Shown: positions 4,644-52,458 of the stretch, one piece after another
How the letters are laid out: each line of letters begins with the position of its first letter
Position numbering within the stretch: the stretch's first letter is position 1
Assembly (NCBI GenBank): GCA_963615025.1
Contig: CAVEFV010000002.1
Coordinates: forward strand, 10,755 to 74,754
Source of the DNA: Firmicutes bacterium CAG:95
Lineage (GTDB): Bacteria; Bacteroidota; Bacteroidia; Bacteroidales; Paludibacteraceae
DNA: 64,000 nt
Direction: 5' to 3'
Notes under the pieces: generated by a model
The model's input: the letters and a program-made list of their open reading frames with translations, nothing else
What the model was told of the DNA's origin: nothing
Databases searched by the model: none
Program-made: the position numbers and the translations under genes

Positions 4644-5924
4644 TTATGCTTTATTTTTCTGTTTTAGTTTCTTGATTTCTGTTTCTAACTTTACTATCTC
4701 TTTCTCTTGGTTATTGATAGTGGTGAGCAGTTCATTCAGTTCTTCATTATCAATGGTTGTTGGATATTGCTCATCAACAAGTTGCAGGAAGTCGGCCAAT
4801 ACATTCATATAGTTAGTAAAGGCTTCGTAAGCAGACTCATAGTTAGTACCTTCGGCATCTATATGATTCATGAAGCGTAGATAGTCAACTGCTTGTAGGA
4901 ATAGCCAGTCTCTTTTAAGGCGTTTATCTTGACAGAGATGTACTCGTTCTGCCACTGCATATAGTTTATGTAAGGCTTCCTGTTGCAAGTCGTTACCATT
5001 GTAGGGTGTCAGGTCTTTTGCTTCTCCAGCCCATGTGATAGGATAAGGTACGGAAACTGCATCTACAATAGATAGTTTTTTAGCGATTTCTTGTGGTGTC
5101 ATGAAGCCAATATTCTTCTCGAGAAGATAGTAGGGCAATGCTTTCATAAAGTCGAATATACCGGTTTGTGCTTGTTGTCGTATACCGAAAGTTTCAGCAC
5201 CCATCCATATATTGACGATAGGTTCTTCTTGTGGGGTCTCGTCTATTATCTGCGCGAATTTAGGTGCATCCATTGGATAGTGGTGCCATGTAGGGTCGGA
5301 GAAGTGAAAAGCAAGTTCGTCGCTTAATGCAGTGTTGCGTAACAGTACTTTGAGTTTAGGAGCAGCCACCGAAGAATATAGGTAGTTGGGAGATTTCCAA
5401 CTCAATATATGTTTGGCACCCTCTGTCATTACCGCCTTATATCCAAGTTTAGTAAGCGTTTCGGCTATCTCGTCAGAATAGAGCAACTCTGTATTCCAAA
5501 CAGTAGTTGATTTTTGTGCAAACAGTTCCTGTGTGAGATGTTGGTGGTGTTTGAGTTGTTCTTCGAATTCATTTTGGTTGTAAACGGCAGCAAGTGAGTA
5601 GGCATAAGGTGTAGCAACGAATTCGACGCACTTGGTGTCTGCAAGTTCTTTGAGTAGGTCAATCATCTCCGGTACGAACTGTTCGAGCATTTCGAGCATA
5701 ATTCCAGACACACTGATGGCGCACTTGAATTTGCCGTTAGATACTTGTATCATTTCTTTAATCGTACGGCACAGTGGAATGTATGATGTTTGGCAGAGCC
5801 AAGAAATATTATCTTCGGTCTGCATATCATCGTAGTAATAATGGTCTTGCCCTATTTCGAAGAAACGATATCGTTTCAGCCGATACGGTGCGTGCAGGCT
5901 AAAACAGAAGCATGTATTTTTCAT
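4644..5924 (-). CDS. glycoside hydrolase family 57 (alpha-amylase/branching-enzyme-like)
   Basis: MKNTCFCFSLHAPYRLKRYRFFEIGQDHYYYDD is a typical GH57 N-terminus. I prefer the ATG at 5924, or alternatively 5948, which forms an ATGA overlap with the upstream stop. The 502-aa extension to 6152 overlaps the synthase gene. Confidence 0.88.
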   Translation of the reverse strand: MKNTCFCFSLHAPYRLKRYRFFEIGQDHYYYDDMQTEDNISWLCQTSYIPLCRTIKEMIQVSNGKFKCAISVSGIMLEMLEQFVPEMIDLLKELADTKCVEFVATPYAYSLAAVYNQNEFEEQLKHHQHLTQELFAQKSTTVWNTELLYSDEIAETLTKLGYKAVMTEGAKHILSWKSPNYLYSSVAAPKLKVLLRNTALSDELAFHFSDPTWHHYPMDAPKFAQIIDETPQEEPIVNIWMGAETFGIRQQAQTGIFDFMKALPYYLLEKNIGFMTPQEIAKKLSIVDAVSVPYPITWAGEAKDLTPYNGNDLQQEALHKLYAVAERVHLCQDKRLKRDWLFLQAVDYLRFMNHIDAEGTNYESAYEAFTNYMNVLADFLQLVDEQYPTTIDNEELNELLTTINNQEKEIVKLETEIKKLKQKNKA

Positions 5925-10558: not shown

Positions 10559-10703
10559 GGGAACGGTAACATATTGATTTCTCTGCGAAGGAGAGTCGAG
10601 AGCCATAGCACGCTATGGCTCTACAGCGGGCATAAACGATGATACCTTCGACGGGGAAACAGTGATGGTGTGAAGAGAGCCATAGCACGCTATGGCTCTA
10701 CAG
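10559..10703 (-). repeat. REP-like hairpin array, locus 1 (2 units, 77-nt period)
   Basis: Perfect palindromes AGAGCCATAGC-AC-GCTATGGCTCT at 10599-10622 and 10676-10699. Each is preceded on the minus strand by CTGT. The same units occur at 22.6 and 44.3-44.6 kb. Confidence 0.9.
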
Positions 10704-10787
10704 TTATTATCAATTAACAATTAACAATTAATAATTAATAAACCGAGAGGGCTATTTTGTAGGTTGTTGGTAGGTAGTTTGTAAGTT

Positions 10788-10831
10788 CTTCCTATATTCT
10801 TCCTATATTCTTCCTATATTCGTCGTATATA
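10788..10831 (-). repeat. 11-bp tandem array, locus 1 (4 units)
   Basis: CTTCCTATATT x3 then CGTCGTATATA. This is the reverse complement of the A(G/A)GA(C/T)GAATAT units at the other loci. Confidence 0.9.
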
Positions 10832-10840
10832 AAACCTTTG

Positions 10841-11100
10841 TAATATATAGGAATAATGGGGCTTGGCGGGAGGGAAGTTTGAGGGATTGGGAATTTAGGA
10901 GGGAGGAATGAGGATTAAAAGTGGAGAGTTGAAAGTTAATAGAAGTTTGGTATTGAGTGTATCAAGTAGAGGATAGAGGGGTTTACATAGTTGAGTGTTG
11001 AGAGTTGAGGGTTTAGTGCAGTTTAGCGTTGAGTGTTGATGAGTTTAGGGATTGATGAGTTTAGGGGAATTTGAGATTGAGGAAAGGGTGATGGTGTTGT
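10841..11100 (-). repeat. strand-asymmetric tract of the modular element (C-depleted on the + strand)
   Basis: By hand count there are only 6 C in 10861-11100 (240 nt). Internal direct repeat TTGATGAGTTTAGGG at 11036-11050 and 11052-11066. Confidence 0.8.
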
Positions 11101-11150
11101 AAAAAAACGGATTATGCATGGAATCGGTTGCATAATTACAGGAAAAGCCG

Positions 11151-11158
11151 TATCTTTG
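11151..11158 (+). promoter_or_regulatory. -7 promoter box TATCTTTG for ruvA
   Basis: Exact TAnnTTTG, 59 nt upstream of the ATG at 11217. Confidence 0.55.
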
Positions 11159-11216
11159 CCCCTTAAAAGGTATTTTTTACGAAAAAGTAAGGAATTATTA
11201 CAGAAAGGGATATGCT

Positions 11217-19302: not shown

Positions 19303-19335
19303 GGAAGCCTGTCCGATAATAAAAATCAGCCTTCC
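19303..19335 (+). terminator. possible terminator hairpin after sprA
   Basis: GGAAGCCTG/CAGCCTTCC stem (8 of 9 pairs) with a 15-nt loop and no clear U-tract. Confidence 0.3.
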
Positions 19336-19446
19336 GCTTCGTTGGTACTTGCCACCTGTTCCGAAGGATTTATAGTAGAATGGGAATCGGCATAATATTC
19401 ACTTTGCAATCCGGAAATAAACACGGTGCCTGCATTTCTCTACCTG

Positions 19447-22536: not shown

Positions 22537-22578
22537 CACCCCTTTTCCACCGCCACCCTCACTATATGCTCTTAATAA

Positions 22579-22920
22579 CTGTAGAGCCATAGCGTGCTAT
22601 GGCTCTCTGCGTGGCTTCTTGCGTGGCAATATGTTTGATAATCCTTTGCCCGTCGTCTGTAACTTCGTTTAGGCTAACTGTAGAGCCATAGCGTGCTATG
22701 GCTCTCAACTCCCTTTTGCAGAACAAACAATATGTTCCCCTCCAACCTATGTAAACCCCTCAATAGATCAATATTATTTGGCTATTATTTGATTATTATT
22801 TGTTCCTTGTTTGTCCGTCCCATACCCGTCGTCTGTAACTTCGTTTAGGCTAACTGTAGAGCCATAGCGTGCTATGGCTCTCGACTTCCTTCCGCAGACA
22901 GAACAATGTGTTACCGTTTT
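22579..22920 (+). repeat. REP-like hairpin array, locus 2 (3 units)
   Basis: CTGT + AGAGCCATAGC-GT-GCTATGGCTCT at 22583-22606, 22682-22705 and 22858-22881. An exact 29-nt pre-hairpin repeat CCCGTCGTCTGTAACTTCGTTTAGGCTAA lies at 22649-22677 and 22825-22853. Confidence 0.9.
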
Positions 22921-23049
22921 ACCTATATTGACAACTCCTATCAACTATTTACTTTCAACCATCAAACTTTAATATCCATTCTTCTATCCTATTTCCCTCT
23001 TTCCTCTAAACTCCCCTCCGCAAAGCCCTATATTTACTACCATTTCCAA

Positions 23050-23104
23050 AGGATTGATATAGGACGAATATAAGACGAATATAGGATGAATATAGAACGA
23101 ATAT
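23050..23104 (+). repeat. 11-bp tandem array, locus 2 (5 units)
   Basis: Units in order: AGGATTGATAT, AGGACGAATAT, AAGACGAATAT, AGGATGAATAT, AGAACGAATAT. Confidence 0.9.
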
Positions 23105-23360
23105 AGAAATCACATTCCACAATCACCCCAAAATCATCCAATCAACAATCATAAAATTATTAAAATTTTTAGATTCAATCACTCGTTCAACTATATCCCC
23201 TATATCAACCATAAACGCCATACATCCAGTACACATCTCGCATATCAATTATCAATAAAGTATGGATAGTAGGAACAATAAGGATGTGTCTAAACTCTAC
23301 TGCACACCCCTTTCCATAAAATATCCATATAGGGGTACTAAGTATGATGTTATAAAATAC

Positions 23361-24104
23361 CTATATAGCCTTTATTGTATGATACACTTTGCGAATAAAA
23401 TTCTCATAATCATTCAGAATGATAGAACTACCAAAATCAGAATAGTGGTTTGTACTTACTCGGATTTGTGTATTGCATTGTGTGTAAAAGTCCATATACT
23501 CTTTGTCAGTTTTCCCCAACAACGCATCATTGTTTGGAATATGTACCACATACAAAAGTGTCTTGTTGGGCGTATGGAAAAATCTGTCCACATTATCGTG
23601 CGATAAGGTAATATATTTAGCGGCATTATGCTCCGTGAATGTTTCCCACTTAGCAATTCGTTTATCTCTCTTATAATAGGGCAATCGGTCTAAGATAATG
23701 AATATCTGAAAATACGGGCAATTATTAGCGCGTATATTAGCAGTCTCGCCTAACATATTTTCGAAGTAGTTATTTGAATTCTGCGAATAATTCTGCATTA
23801 TAAATTTTACGGCAATGCCGGCAATCGGCATATTTGTATCTGATTCACATATAGTCACATCCACCTTCTTATCTACATACCTCCCTTGTATATTCCCCTC
23901 TCTATCATCCTCCCACCCTTGTGAATGCACACAATATCCTATTCCCAACCGCAGAGACAAGTCTTTGGCTATAGCACCGTGTAATGGTTTCAATTTAGCC
24001 GTACTACGGGATGTCCCTGACTGAAGGAACTCGCAAAACGAATTGGAGATTACATCAAGAAATCCATTATTACTCAATGGAAAAGAGATCTCTTTGCTTT
24101 TCAT
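23361..24104 (-). CDS. putative type II restriction endonuclease (family not recognised)
   Basis: 247-aa ORF overlapping the 3' end of the methyltransferase gene by 35 nt. Very AT-rich. Has a candidate PD-(D/E)XK-like segment (VDKKVDVTI...IAGIAVKF). The assignment rests on context. Confidence 0.55.
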   Translation of the reverse strand: MKSKEISFPLSNNGFLDVISNSFCEFLQSGTSRSTAKLKPLHGAIAKDLSLRLGIGYCVHSQGWEDDREGNIQGRYVDKKVDVTICESDTNMPIAGIAVKFIMQNYSQNSNNYFENMLGETANIRANNCPYFQIFIILDRLPYYKRDKRIAKWETFTEHNAAKYITLSHDNVDRFFHTPNKTLLYVVHIPNNDALLGKTDKEYMDFYTQCNTQIRVSTNHYSDFGSSIILNDYENFIRKVYHTIKAI

Positions 24105-25512
24105 ATAGACCCAGTTTATAGTTAATATATTGTTCCAATTCTTTGGAACTGAAAGTATAATATCCGCCGCTCTTATAATGCCGTAATGTTCGGATATAAT
24201 GCATAAATTCTTCTGTAAATAGAATGTCCCTTAAGGTATCCTTATCTACTTTTGTTAAGATATACAAACCACTATATACCCCTGCTCCTTCAACAACCTG
24301 TTTCAGTTTGATAGAGCCTTGGTTAATGAACAAACTATTGATAGCGTATTTATTAGTCCACACATCTTTCAAGGCTTGCGTCCGACCATATAAATACCAC
24401 TCGGGACAATCCTGTTCACTTCGTCCTTTCAACAAGATTTCCTTGTTTTGTAATAAATAGTCACGGATAGCCGGAACAGAGAAAATTTGTTCTTTGGACA
24501 ACGGCTTCCCCTGTGTATCGTAAGGATAGAAGGCATGATACCAATTCCCTGTAGATGCCTTTAATACAGGGATAGTATATTCTGTAAAAGGAAAACTCGG
24601 ACGGATGAAGACATTGTCTGCAAGTGTGGCAAAACCATTCTTTACTTGCACATATTGTTTGTGCGGTGAGACAAATATCTTTCGTAATATAGCAAGCATT
24701 TGAGGATTAGCCATATACATATAGTTCCCTATCATAGTTTCCTCTATTGTCAAACAGTCTGTTACTAAAATAATATGCCGCTCACCTATATATTTGCAAT
24801 ATGTAAAATCATTGTGTCGAACGCCCTTCTCAAATAAAGCGATCATTGTATAAGTGGTCGCCGAAAAAGGTTGGAAGTGTTCCAGATCAATGAGTTTTAC
24901 CAAGTTATGCTGTGTACGGATATATTGCCTGAAAACTCCACCTGCTACACTATTTATCCACGAACTCGGAGTGATGTAACATAATCGCCCGCCCGAACAA
25001 AGCATTTGGAACCCGATTTCATAAAACGCCAGATACAAATCGGTCATTCCTCCTTGCGTAAAACATAATTGCTTGATTGAAGCATAATTGTCCACAAGAT
25101 TATGCACGCGTACATATGGCGGATTGCCCACCACAAAATCCATTTTACCATTGAATTTCGAAATGGTTAAGGCATCAGCATTGAGTATATCCCATGGTAC
25201 ATCAGGCACGCCCAATTCCTCCAACAATGTATCTAAATTTCGGATACATTGGGAATATGCCACGCCATCCAATTCTATACCATGGATATAGGTGGAAAGT
25301 TCCTGCTGTAAAACTTGGACATCAGATGATTGTTGCAGAAAAACAGCGCAGTAACGCCGTACTATTTCGCAGAGAAAAGCACCGTCACCACAACTGTTAT
25401 CAATGATGTGCTTACGAAGAATGCGTGTGCCGACATACCCTGCTACATCGAGGATATCACACACTAAATAATGGGGCGTAAAGACCTGCCCTGATTGTTT
25501 TATAGTTGCCAT
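24070..25512 (-). CDS. N6-adenine DNA methyltransferase, gamma class (Eco57I/TaqI-like)
   Basis: 480 aa. GQVFTPHYLVCDILD, then AdoMet motif I IIDNSCGDGAFL, then catalytic motif IV VVGNPPYV, followed by a long C-terminal target-recognition region. Confidence 0.88.
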   Translation of the reverse strand: MATIKQSGQVFTPHYLVCDILDVAGYVGTRILRKHIIDNSCGDGAFLCEIVRRYCAVFLQQSSDVQVLQQELSTYIHGIELDGVAYSQCIRNLDTLLEELGVPDVPWDILNADALTISKFNGKMDFVVGNPPYVRVHNLVDNYASIKQLCFTQGGMTDLYLAFYEIGFQMLCSGGRLCYITPSSWINSVAGGVFRQYIRTQHNLVKLIDLEHFQPFSATTYTMIALFEKGVRHNDFTYCKYIGERHIILVTDCLTIEETMIGNYMYMANPQMLAILRKIFVSPHKQYVQVKNGFATLADNVFIRPSFPFTEYTIPVLKASTGNWYHAFYPYDTQGKPLSKEQIFSVPAIRDYLLQNKEILLKGRSEQDCPEWYLYGRTQALKDVWTNKYAINSLFINQGSIKLKQVVEGAGVYSGLYILTKVDKDTLRDILFTEEFMHYIRTLRHYKSGGYYTFSSKELEQYINYKLGLYEKQRDLFSIE

Positions 25513-32516: not shown

Positions 32517-32657
32517 GGTTGCATTTATTATATAGTCGTTTTGTAGTAAGCAAAAAGATTGCCATGTGTATGGTGCTGCCAGAATGGCAGGGAGGATTTT
32601 TGTTTAGTTGATAGTTGATGGTTGATAGAGGATATAGTTGGAACGGATAAAAATGTG

Positions 32658-35275: not shown

Positions 35276-35376
35276 AGAATGCAGTAAAATCGCGTTGTGT
35301 TTTATCAATAGAGGTTATATTTTCAGGGTGTGATTTTGGTGGGTGATGAGTACCATTTTGGGAGGTAGTTTATAGG

Positions 35377-35420
35377 TTCGTCCTATATTCATCCTATATT
35401 CGTCCTATATTCATCCTTTG
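35377..35420 (-). repeat. 11-bp tandem array, locus 3 (4 units)
   Basis: Units in order: TTCGTCCTATA, TTCATCCTATA, TTCGTCCTATA, TTCATCCTTTG. This is the reverse-complement orientation. Confidence 0.9.
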
Positions 35421-35494
35421 AAACAGGCAGTATTTATCGGGCTTGACGGATGGTGAGTTTTTCGTTTTGGGGTTGAATAGGTATGCTTTCGGGC
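35415..35494 (-). repeat. conserved core of the modular element, locus 3
   Basis: 73 of 80 nt identical to the reverse complement of 52071-52150. Confidence 0.9.
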
Positions 35495-35719
35495 ATGAAT
35501 TCCATTTAGATCCTTTAAGAATTGAGTATAGCGGAGCAGGGGAGTGGGAAGGAAGTGGAATTTGACGGGATGGGAATGTGGCATTGCGTTGGTTTGCAGT
35601 AGGTTGACAGGATGATGGAAGATGGGATGGGGCAGGGTGGTGGTGCTATGGAAGGGGTGTTCTTACAGGGAAAACATTATTTTTTACCGAAAACGCTTGC
35701 ATAATCGGCACAGAAGCAC

Positions 35720-35727
35720 TACCTTTG
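35720..35727 (+). promoter_or_regulatory. -7 promoter box TACCTTTG for tRNA-Gln
   Basis: Exact TAnnTTTG, 50 nt upstream of the tRNA 5' end. Confidence 0.5.
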
Positions 35728-35776
35728 CAGTCGCTCTTGTAGAAGACGGCGGAAAGCATTTTGCTGGGGATGAAAT

Positions 35777-44008: not shown

Positions 44009-44036
44009 CTCGTGCCGTACTCCTGTGCGGCACGAG
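44009..44036 (+). terminator. terminator hairpin after the GH43 gene
   Basis: 9-bp GC-rich stem CTCGTGCCG/CGGCACGAG with a 10-nt loop and no clear U-tract. Confidence 0.5.
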
Positions 44037-44117
44037 TGATATATCTCCAAATCCCCCGTCCTGCACCCTCCTTAAAAGTAACCCATCGCCAACGCCCGTC
44101 ATTCCTATGTATTTCAA

Positions 44118-44172
44118 AGGTTTAATATAGGATGAATATAGGACGAATATAAGACGAATATAGGATGAATAT
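44118..44172 (+). repeat. 11-bp tandem array, locus 4 (5 units)
   Basis: Units in order: AGGTTTAATAT, AGGATGAATAT, AGGACGAATAT, AAGACGAATAT, AGGATGAATAT. Confidence 0.9.
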
Positions 44173-44271
44173 ATCATGATGTGACGAGGTATATACAAAA
44201 TTGTGACGAAATACGATACCTAATCCATACTTGTCAAATTGTAAATTATCCAATTGTCAATTCCATATACT

Positions 44272-44620
44272 GACTGCAAAACCATACCATGCTATGGCTC
44301 TCTTCACACCATCTCCATTTGCCCATCAAATGGATCATCGTTTATGCTCGCTGTAAAACCATACCATGCTATGGCTCTCTTCACACCATCTCCGTTTGCT
44401 TATCAAATGTAACATCGTTTATGCTCGCTGTAGAGCCATAGCGTGCTATGGCTCTCAACTCTCCTTCGCAGACTAAACAATATGTTACCCTCACACCTCT
44501 ATAATCCCCACCAATGCACAACCATCAACGATGCGACTTTCATATTGGCTGTAAAACCATACCATGCTATGGCTCTCAACTCTCCTTCACAGAACAAACA
44601 ATATGTTCCCGTTAAACCTA
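44272..44620 (+). repeat. REP-like hairpin array, locus 4 (4 head-to-tail units; spacings 79, 77 and 121 nt)
   Basis: Hairpins at 44276-44299, 44355-44378 and 44553-44576 are the degenerate variant AAAACCATACCATGCTATGGCTCT. The hairpin at 44432-44455 is the perfect AGAGCCATAGCGTGCTATGGCTCT form. Confidence 0.9.
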
Positions 44621-44712
44621 ATTAACCCTTTCAACCAATTAAACAACACTACTATAAACCCACAACTTTTCTCAATCTCGCAGAAACATTTGTACAACCA
44701 ACCAAAAATCTG

Positions 44713-44720
44713 TAACTTTG
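44713..44720 (+). promoter_or_regulatory. -7 promoter box TAACTTTG for the FKBP pair
   Basis: Exact TAnnTTTG, 45 nt upstream of the ATG at 44765. Confidence 0.5.
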
Positions 44721-52070: not shown

Positions 52071-52150
52071 ACCCAAAAGCATACCTGTTCAAACCCAAAA
52101 CGACAAACTCACCATCCGTCAAGCCCGATAAATACTGCCTATTTCGAAGG
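52071..52150 (+). repeat. conserved core of the modular element, locus 5
   Basis: Reverse complement is 73/80 identical to 35415-35494. Confidence 0.9.
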
Positions 52151-52202
52151 TTTTATATAGGATGAATATAGGATGAATATAAGACGAATATAAGATGAGT
52201 AT
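52148..52202 (+). repeat. 11-bp tandem array, locus 5 (5 units)
   Basis: Units in order: AGGTTTTATAT, AGGATGAATAT, AGGATGAATAT, AAGACGAATAT, AAGATGAGTAT. Confidence 0.9.
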
Positions 52203-52421
52203 AGAAACAACATAGAAAAACCCTCAAAACGCACTACAAAACAGGCAAAACAAAAATACAACAATCATTCGTAACCCAATAGTCATATCTTAATAATTGT
52301 TCCTATAAAAACGACAACAAAATACTTTTTTCCTCTCTCACCCCAATCGGATATATACCTCCTAAACGCTTTTTTCCTACCTTTCCCATTCCGCCATCTT
52401 GTGTAACTTAATTAAATGTCG

Positions 52422-52429
52422 TATCTTTG
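52422..52429 (+). promoter_or_regulatory. -7 promoter box TATCTTTG for lepA
   Basis: Exact TAnnTTTG, 30 nt upstream of the ATG at 52459. Confidence 0.55.
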
Positions 52430-52458
52430 CCATTGATTTATAATCTGCTCTCCGTAGT

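Follow-up and report, generated by a model that had tools for sequence, protein, structure and literature searches.

A lineage-restricted, high-copy intergenic repeat element with a core of phased 11-bp arrays in Bacteroidales

The window and its repeat element

The window, by which we mean the whole 64,000-nucleotide stretch of DNA analysed here, comes from an uncultured gut member of the Bacteroidales that carries SprA (T9SS), and it also codes for HtpG, LepA, and other housekeeping genes. Comparisons of LepA and HtpG identified Bacteroidales MAGs as its nearest relatives, and the genes of the window are preceded by promoters of the Bacteroidetes type, TTG-N20-TAnnTTTG. One such promoter, TTG-N20-TAACTTTG, lies on the plus strand before an FKBP gene (44690-44720) and is invariant in orthologues, and members of the same promoter family were found at 52399-52431, 35697-35729, and 11128-11160. 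Our first thought, suggested by the heptamer arrays described below, had been a cyanobacterial repeat; SprA and the T9SS, the Bacteroidetes promoters, and the Bacteroidales relatives led us to reject it.

A GH43 gene lies upstream of the FKBP gene, and directly 3' of its stop codon stands a GC-rich hairpin with 12-nt arms (44009-44036, plus strand) that is invariant in five orthologues. This hairpin is probably the terminator of the GH43 gene; our terminator scan did not call it because it has no T-tract. It is situated between the GH43 gene and a copy of the 11-bp element that is the subject of this study, and it is not part of that element. The FKBP-gene promoter also falls outside the element and sets its outer limit. 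Elsewhere in the window, two SAM-I/IV riboswitch aptamers on the minus strand (207-308 and 1463-1564; 60.2 and 50.5 bits), about 1.26 kb apart, sit in a duplicated segment whose halves (8-304 and 1265-1560) are 71-87% identical.

A preliminary description of this DNA had reported five tandem arrays with a strict 11-bp period, and all five were recovered by Tandem Repeats Finder, at 10786-10830, 23057-23106, 35377-35417, 44124-44173, and 52155-52204, with 3.7-4.5 copies and 87-94% matches. Chance is excluded by shuffles: two consecutive units, RGAYGAATATARGAYGAATAT, occur 11 times in the window when 0.00 occurrences are expected, and the single unit ATATAGGAYGA occurs 10 times, always within the arrays, when 0.08 are expected. 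The strands given for the arrays (-, +, -, +, +) agree with ours, every array does begin with a degenerate unit after (C/T)(A/G)AAGG, and variation between units is indeed concentrated at the R and Y positions.

The arrays are not free-standing, however; each is the core of a repeat element that lies between genes, is present in many copies, and is restricted to one lineage. We assign them to this longer dispersed element, which the preliminary description had not recognised, because a leader of about 45 bp and a small set of tails are common to the copies. The architecture was defined from 33 copies, drawn from the window and from loci found in a pattern scan (272 kb of sequence in all). Each element is about 110-125 bp long (in round terms, roughly 100 bp) and consists of the leader, 4-7 units of ATATAGGAYGA, and one of three tails. 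The leader consensus across the 33 copies is ..AAACTnCCCTCCGCCAAGCCCnnTAAATACTACCTnTTYCAAAGGWTTT, ending in CAAAGGWTTT. Four units were present in 7 copies, five in 18, six in 6, and seven in 2, and the identity of a unit depends on its position: the first often ends in ..GGATCT or ..GGTTTT, the next ones carry GATGA, GACGA, and GATGA, and the last reads ..GGAAGA, ..GAAAGA, or ..ACCAAGA. Because different copies repeat this T-C-T order of variants, the element was copied as a whole rather than grown at each locus by slippage. The class A tail is GCATACAAA; in class B, more 11-mers (ACCTACAAAnn) lead into TTAATTN heptamers and a hairpin; and class C consists of two copies of TGTGACGA placed 22 bp apart. 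The 11-bp phase of the array runs on into the tails.

A profile built from MAG copies only recovered exactly the five window arrays (nhmmer E 1e-19 to 1e-25) together with one solo leader. The copy between the GH43 and FKBP genes, a4 (44080-44173, plus strand, E 1.3e-23), lies between genes in tandem. Its leader occupies approximately 44080-44124 and ends in CAAAGGTTTA; the units that follow are ATATAGGATGA, ATATAGGACGA, ATATAAGACGA, ATATAGGATGA again, and ATATATCATGA, the last of which extends to 44179. Orthologues with the same number of units are present in L038-L041. In the class C tail of a4 (44180-44212, plus strand), a distance of 22 bp separates the two copies of TGTGACGA, which keep the phase of the array (TGTGACGAGGTATATACAAAATTGTGACGAAAT), and this tail is 92% identical between the species of the window and its sister species. 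It is the single tail of this class in the window, and the same module follows the arrays in L004, L016, and L021, and the array in L002 is followed by a TGTGACG start.

Copy a5 (52108-52204, plus strand, E 5e-25) lies between a DUF4861 gene and lepA, also in tandem, and decaying units run on from it to about 52220; orthologues with an unchanged unit count occur in L038, L040, L043, L044, and L045, and the copy is absent in L032-L037. Copy a3 (35376-35456, minus strand, E 3.5e-19) has four units and is antisense to an AAA_28 gene and to tRNA-Gln. Copy a1 (10782-10877, minus strand, E 2.3e-22) stands between the divergent manC-like gene and ruvA, within a composite of approximately 10664-10942 that comprises the element, a class B tail of ACCTACAAAnn 11-mers, TTAATTN heptamers, and a hairpin, and that matches L026 over 279 nt. 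Tandem Repeats Finder called a period-11 array at 10759-10787 and a period-7 array at 10706-10738 beside it. Copy a2 (23010-23106, plus strand, E 1.8e-23) is placed between convergent genes, the DUF4294 gene and an open reading frame at 23361-24104. The solo leader (19327-19378, plus strand, E 3e-4, leader positions 5-56), which runs from CCTTCCGC to CCTGTTCCGAAGGATTTATA and has no array, is a sixth copy beyond those of the preliminary description.

Array a2 adjoins an N6_Mtase/Eco57I-type gene (24070-25512) and a 247-aa open reading frame, together spanning 23361-25512 of the window. Both are kept in the conspecific strains L055 and L056, and the syntenic place in the sister species (L053, 12095-16435) is filled by other genes; the region is a strain- or species-variable restriction-modification island.

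The element occurs in mosaic clusters with other repeats. A REP-like palindrome, (A/G)AGCCATAGCGTGCTATGGCTCT, is present in nine copies, often in 77-bp tandem units (Tandem Repeats Finder, 44274-44456). Five of the copies are at 10592-10623, 10669-10700, 22576-22607, 22675-22706, and 22851-22882, and the others are at 44271-44302, 44348-44379, 44425-44456, and 44546-44577. Its depth in metagenome contigs (bins 44399-44492) was about 240-910 times that of the flanks, which is higher than for the 11-bp array, and conspecific strains differ by one 77-bp module in the a2 spacer. Heptamer arrays (ATTAACA/TTAATTG, GTTGAGT, TAGTTGA, TTGTCAA) also share spacers with the 11-bp element, at 10706-10738, 10990-11039, 32605-32628, and 44231-44262 and in L006, L007, L023, and L024, and TTAATTN heptamers regularly follow class B tails.

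Copy number and genomic context

A genome-wide pattern search, as proposed in the preliminary description, showed that the arrays extend beyond the window. Taking one genome per species, the scan returned at least 26 loci, and among the matches listed all came from two related MAGs, "Bacteroidaceae bacterium G02652" and "Prevotella sp. P5-108". In four metagenomes, contig depth over the array was about 140-300 times that of unique flanks, and the contigs end at the repeat. Because of this excess depth we place the number of copies on the order of 10^2 per genome, a rough figure to which several related strains may have contributed. Pattern scans of JGI metagenome contigs gave no matches, and blastn gave no match that would indicate a plasmid or phage origin. 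One pattern match on a viral contig (L047) was rejected as an AT-rich chance match in which the leader is absent. A literature search found no match to the sequence strings of the element, and a keyword search for analogues yielded only BrickBuilt and PINSR, which we compare with it below.

All copies are intergenic and occur in either orientation. The flanking genes are in tandem for 11 copies (8 sense, 3 antisense), divergent for 10, and convergent for 4; three copies, that at 35377-35420 among them, run antisense to the genes on both sides. Downstream of a co-oriented gene, the array often begins 29-140 nt past the stop codon. Small hypothetical open reading frames (58-88 aa, no Pfam match) have been called in the element-bearing lepA and a3 spacers of related genomes, at 9606-9830 in L038 and L039 and 4945-5121 in L053, both on the minus strand, and at 4971-5237 on the plus strand of L055. 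These are probably spurious, as reported for PINSR, and the minus-strand calls in L038/L039 and L053 likely arose because the complementary strand of the array has no stop codons.

The preliminary description had also linked the arrays to promoters. We found that the Bacteroidetes promoters adjoin their genes (44690-44720 and 52399-52429 in the window), at array-promoter distances ranging from 86 to 528 nt, so this link did not hold. Canonical promoters in the sense orientation were found only downstream of the element (19 copies, +86 to +510 nt), and antisense ones only upstream of it (15 copies, -108 to -528 nt), with one exception in 33 copies; the element is therefore never inside a 5'UTR. 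Since it keeps no fixed spacing to promoters, whether 86-510 nt downstream or 108-528 nt upstream, no regulatory target is evident, and for the same reason we rejected a response-regulator operator of the pho-box type. About 10 copies are flanked by divergent canonical promoters, both of which read away from the element, so that it lies in DNA left untranscribed by them; by this geometry the copies as a whole occupy DNA that is either untranscribed or close to gene 3' ends. A scan of the spacer for sigma-70 promoters and intrinsic terminators gave nothing above shuffles.

The base composition of these spacers is unusual. Over about 200 nt on each side of every array, in the window and in L001-L026, the ATATAGGAYGA strand contains 10-14% G and 22-33% C, and the array itself is 71% A+G, which makes the composition strand-specific over about 400 nt. 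Repeat modules within one spacer are all co-oriented, and the choice of strand is independent of the orientation of the neighbouring genes.

Such strand-specific composition raises the possibility that the element acts as RNA. Unstructured, purine-rich AUAUAGGAYGA repeats, in 3'UTRs or in transcripts of their own, might then recruit or titrate an RNA-binding protein, or they might combine with the C-rich flanks into a Rho entry region and so insulate the genes nearby. The frequent start of the array shortly past the stop codon of a co-oriented gene would fit this idea, as would the predicted structure, which is at or below that of shuffled sequences (of six strands, five had a fold z of +0.3 to +1.1 and one had -1.3) and thus suggests single-stranded RNA. 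We nonetheless regard an RNA role as improbable. Orientation relative to neighbouring genes is mixed, the three doubly antisense copies included; about 10 copies lie between divergent promoters; a canonical sense promoter upstream was seen in only one copy of 33; and at a4 the conserved hairpin separates the element from the upstream gene. In Rfam searches of the window and three loci, no match reached the gathering threshold, and at E<=1 the spacer returned only chance snoRNA and miRNA rows. A structured noncoding RNA or riboswitch was rejected, as both conserved structure and an Rfam match are lacking.

Conservation between strains and species

We gathered orthologous loci through relatives identified by LepA and HtpG. 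A sister species (L038-L041, L043, and L053), with LepA 99% identical and identity at 4-fold degenerate sites of 0.62-0.74, has the element in the matching place at three loci (a3, a4, and a5), and a second relative (L044/L045, LepA 98%) has it at a5. It is absent from the lepA locus of relatives with LepA identities of 96% and 95% (4-fold identity about 0.34). At the counterpart of the lepA spacer, the 96% relative has another 11-bp array, TATCGGAGAGA x3.2 (L032, 3758-3792; also L033 and L034). Copy a1 was left out of the orthologue comparison, as the related contig L048 ends at repeats, and a2 was left out of the comparison with the sister species, as the restriction-modification island breaks synteny there.

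To compare rates of change we pooled a3, a4, and a5, giving 154 array positions at three loci. Between species, 132 of these 154 positions (0.857) are identical, compared with 694 of 1009 (0.688) in other spacer DNA (Fisher p 6e-6) and 518 of 739 (0.701) at 4-fold sites (Fisher p 4e-5). The leader, at 109 of 155 (0.703), cannot be told from neutral DNA, and the array is held nearer to its consensus than neutral DNA would be. A core that changes more slowly than neutral hints that the array may be bound by protein.

Number of units is likewise nearly fixed. Across species it is kept at a4 and a5, and among conspecific strains at a2 (5 units, L055/L056). At a3 the window has 4 units, and the conspecific L055 and L056 and the sister-species L053 have 5, a single 11-bp indel (35377-35420) that makes one altered locus of the two compared within species. 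This indel between strains also excludes a coding function of the array. The preliminary description had suggested slipped-strand variation; the number of units does differ between loci (4-7), but change is rare, with three of four comparable loci unchanged in orthologues.

Variation in unit number between loci, together with the one 11-bp indel, might suggest a contingency repeat that switches a neighbouring gene through 11-bp slippage, and tandem arrays of this kind can also recall the iterons of a replication origin. We consider both extremely unlikely. Orthologues share their unit number at three of the four loci, even across species, and no array falls within a promoter or 5'UTR or separates a promoter from its gene, the distance to promoters being 86-528 nt; a phase-variable contingency locus was rejected on these grounds, there being one 11-bp change in four orthologous comparisons. 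The iteron proposal of the preliminary description fell as well: five copies stand in 64 kb beside housekeeping genes, many more are distributed over the chromosome, none of the arrays adjoins a rep gene, and the searches for plasmid and phage matches gave nothing.

Within the species, a2 differs from its conspecific counterpart by five transitions, all at R or Y positions (5 of 55 bp, against 26 of 682 bp, or 3.8%, in the flanks; p 0.07). Relative to L055, the differences are at 23073, 23076, 23084, 23096, and 23098. The Y position is a CpG/TpG site (GACGA/GATGA), and deamination of methyl-cytosine or exchange between units could drive this toggling.

Mobility was assessed in the relatives that can be aligned, more distant ones being beyond alignment, and the element filled each site compared, leaving no empty site from which a target-site duplication might be read. 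No presence/absence polymorphism was seen at the four comparable loci, of which a2 and a3 were compared among conspecific strains and a3, a4, and a5 across species. From these comparisons the insertions are old and stable, because the same sites are occupied in the sister species and the number of units is nearly fixed, and the array core is constrained, with two positions toggling between allowed states. The element had already spread when at least two sister species diverged, and no mobility is visible now.

These properties could belong to a decaying selfish repeat without host function, of the MITE, BrickBuilt, or PINSR kind, which spread once and whose arrays remain alike through gene conversion or unequal exchange among the roughly 10^2 copies and their units. 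Such a relic would be lineage-restricted, as is this family, which is missing from the lepA locus of the next relatives and from JGI metagenome contigs. It would occupy only spacer DNA, where insertions are tolerated, and it could form mosaics with other high-copy modules of strain-variable number. Neutral evolution of the leader, the solo leader at 19327-19378, and the changes in the a2 array (23057-23111), all of which are allowed variants and fit conversion, would be in keeping with it as well. Yet unbiased conversion does not slow long-term divergence, and the arrays stand at 0.857 when the neutral value is 0.70. Nor did we find terminal inverted repeats: a search for inverted repeats around five copies gave no pair that bounds the element consistently. 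The constancy of sites at the four comparable loci and the near-invariance of unit number also argue against it. We therefore consider a purely selfish relic possible but rather unlikely. As for membership among MITEs in the strict sense, the element is short, non-coding, multi-copy, and intergenic; we rejected that assignment on the lack of terminal inverted repeats and of mobility.

The array as a candidate protein-binding platform and its relation to known systems

A strict 11-bp period may matter through the shape of the DNA alone, if phased TATA steps curve it or make it flexible and this shape serves as the signal, no specific protein being needed. In our model each unit has a twist of 371.8 degrees, equivalent to a helical repeat of 10.65 bp, so that units would be nearly in phase, and spacer DNA in general is autocorrelated at lags of 11, 22, and 33 bp (0.292, 0.295, and 0.289, against a baseline of about 0.27, in spacers >150 bp with the five arrays removed). 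The preliminary description had raised intrinsic bending, and here the curvature check went against it. A wedge model with Bolshoy/Trifonov parameters, to which we give low weight, predicted a bend of 28-40 degrees over 75 bp. This value falls in the 70th-90th percentile of the window background, compared with 112 degrees for a phased A-tract control, and the bend is no greater than in shuffles of the same bases, 15-52% of which bend as much. Moreover, GGAYGA is conserved, beyond the AT steps alone, which points to base-specific recognition. We judge a purely structural role very improbable. As a separate observation on periodicity, coding DNA is autocorrelated only with a period of 3, and about 18 of the 45 Tandem Repeats Finder rows for the window have a period of 11.

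What, then, might the array do? The element is neither a promoter nor a replication origin, and it is no structured RNA or phase-variation switch either. The account that we tentatively consider best, though at slightly less than an even chance, is that it belongs to an immobile, old repeat family of the BrickBuilt/PINSR kind whose phased array has been kept as a DNA-level platform for protein binding. The array would act as a head-to-tail row of sites for a trans-acting, sequence-specific protein, with one putative binding site per helical turn and all sites on one face. The putative binder could be an architectural or nucleoid protein, or a recombinase that once moved the element, and by analogy with ParR on the 11-bp iterons of parC and PhoB on 11-bp pho boxes its binding would be cooperative. 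Of the two functions that the preliminary description had offered together, cooperative binding thus remains the best functional reading, the arrays being conserved above neutral, and only the iteron part is lost.

We infer the binding step from conservation of the array, and biased gene conversion among many copies could mimic selection of this sort. Binding to DNA also leaves the G-poor flanks and the co-orientation of modules without explanation. A more specific version, modelled on filaments of the ParR/parC or Xis type, would make the arrays domesticated nucleation sites spread over the whole chromosome. A lineage-specific protein would polymerise head-to-tail over 4-7 sites at some 10^2 places per chromosome, insulating or organising the spacers between transcription units in a clade of Bacteroidales. 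This proposal is speculative, and we think it unlikely to be correct in that form.

An array kept above neutral while its leader drifts offers a clean case for separating a selfish relic from a site used by the host. Should a binding protein exist, a clade that has received little study would have yielded a new system of architecture or regulation; should there be none, the family would remain useful as a lineage marker, and promoter or sRNA prediction in such genomes would still have to allow for it. Repeat families of this kind account for a noticeable part of the intergenic DNA of gut Bacteroidales, and MAG-based catalogues under-describe them because short-read assemblies break right at the repeat.

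Among known systems, BrickBuilt is a minisatellite-containing MITE of Porphyromonas gingivalis, which also belongs to the order Bacteroidales; its units are 23 nt long and number from 1 to about 23, it has small terminal inverted repeats, each genome carries 19 copies, promoter activity has been reported for it, and it is always intergenic, 49-591 nt from coding sequences (PMC4596501). The two share their order, a plan of leader, spacer-less tandem units, and tail, an intergenic location, restriction to a species, and copies with a partial leader or tail or none. The present element differs in its 11-nt units, of which each copy has 4-7 in a nearly fixed number, in its copy number of about 10^2, and in lacking both inverted ends and a canonical promoter. 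PINSR, of the P. intermedia group, is 188 bp long and present in about 180 copies, lacks inverted ends, and keeps most of its sites between strains (PMC4755523). It resembles our element as a lineage-specific, high-copy intergenic repeat without inverted ends over whose copies spurious small CDSs are called, as in L038 and L055. It differs in host clade and in length, and no internal 11-bp array has been described for it, a comparison made by description, as its consensus is published as a figure.

REP and BIME sequences of enterobacteria are extragenic mosaics of short repeat modules that bind IHF and gyrase. Here too the arrays share spacers with other modules, namely the REP-like palindrome GAGCCATAGCGTGCTATGGCTC and the heptamer arrays, but the array is a direct repeat, and modules within a spacer are co-oriented rather than alternating. 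Assignment to a REP/BIME unit was accordingly rejected, a palindrome being found only in the neighbouring hairpin module.

The closest models for the array itself are parC of plasmid R1, where ParR binds 11-bp iterons arranged as two sets of five, and the pho boxes, 11-bp direct repeats bound by PhoB. All are head-to-tail 11-bp direct repeats, and those of parC and the pho boxes are bound cooperatively, with one protein unit per helical turn. However, they are single per replicon or fixed in promoters, whereas ours number about 10^2 on the chromosome, are unrelated in sequence, and have a binder that is putative. The element is not a member of the parC or pho-box family. It is an addition to the lineage-specific intergenic repeat families, and what distinguishes it is a phased core that is conserved above neutral.
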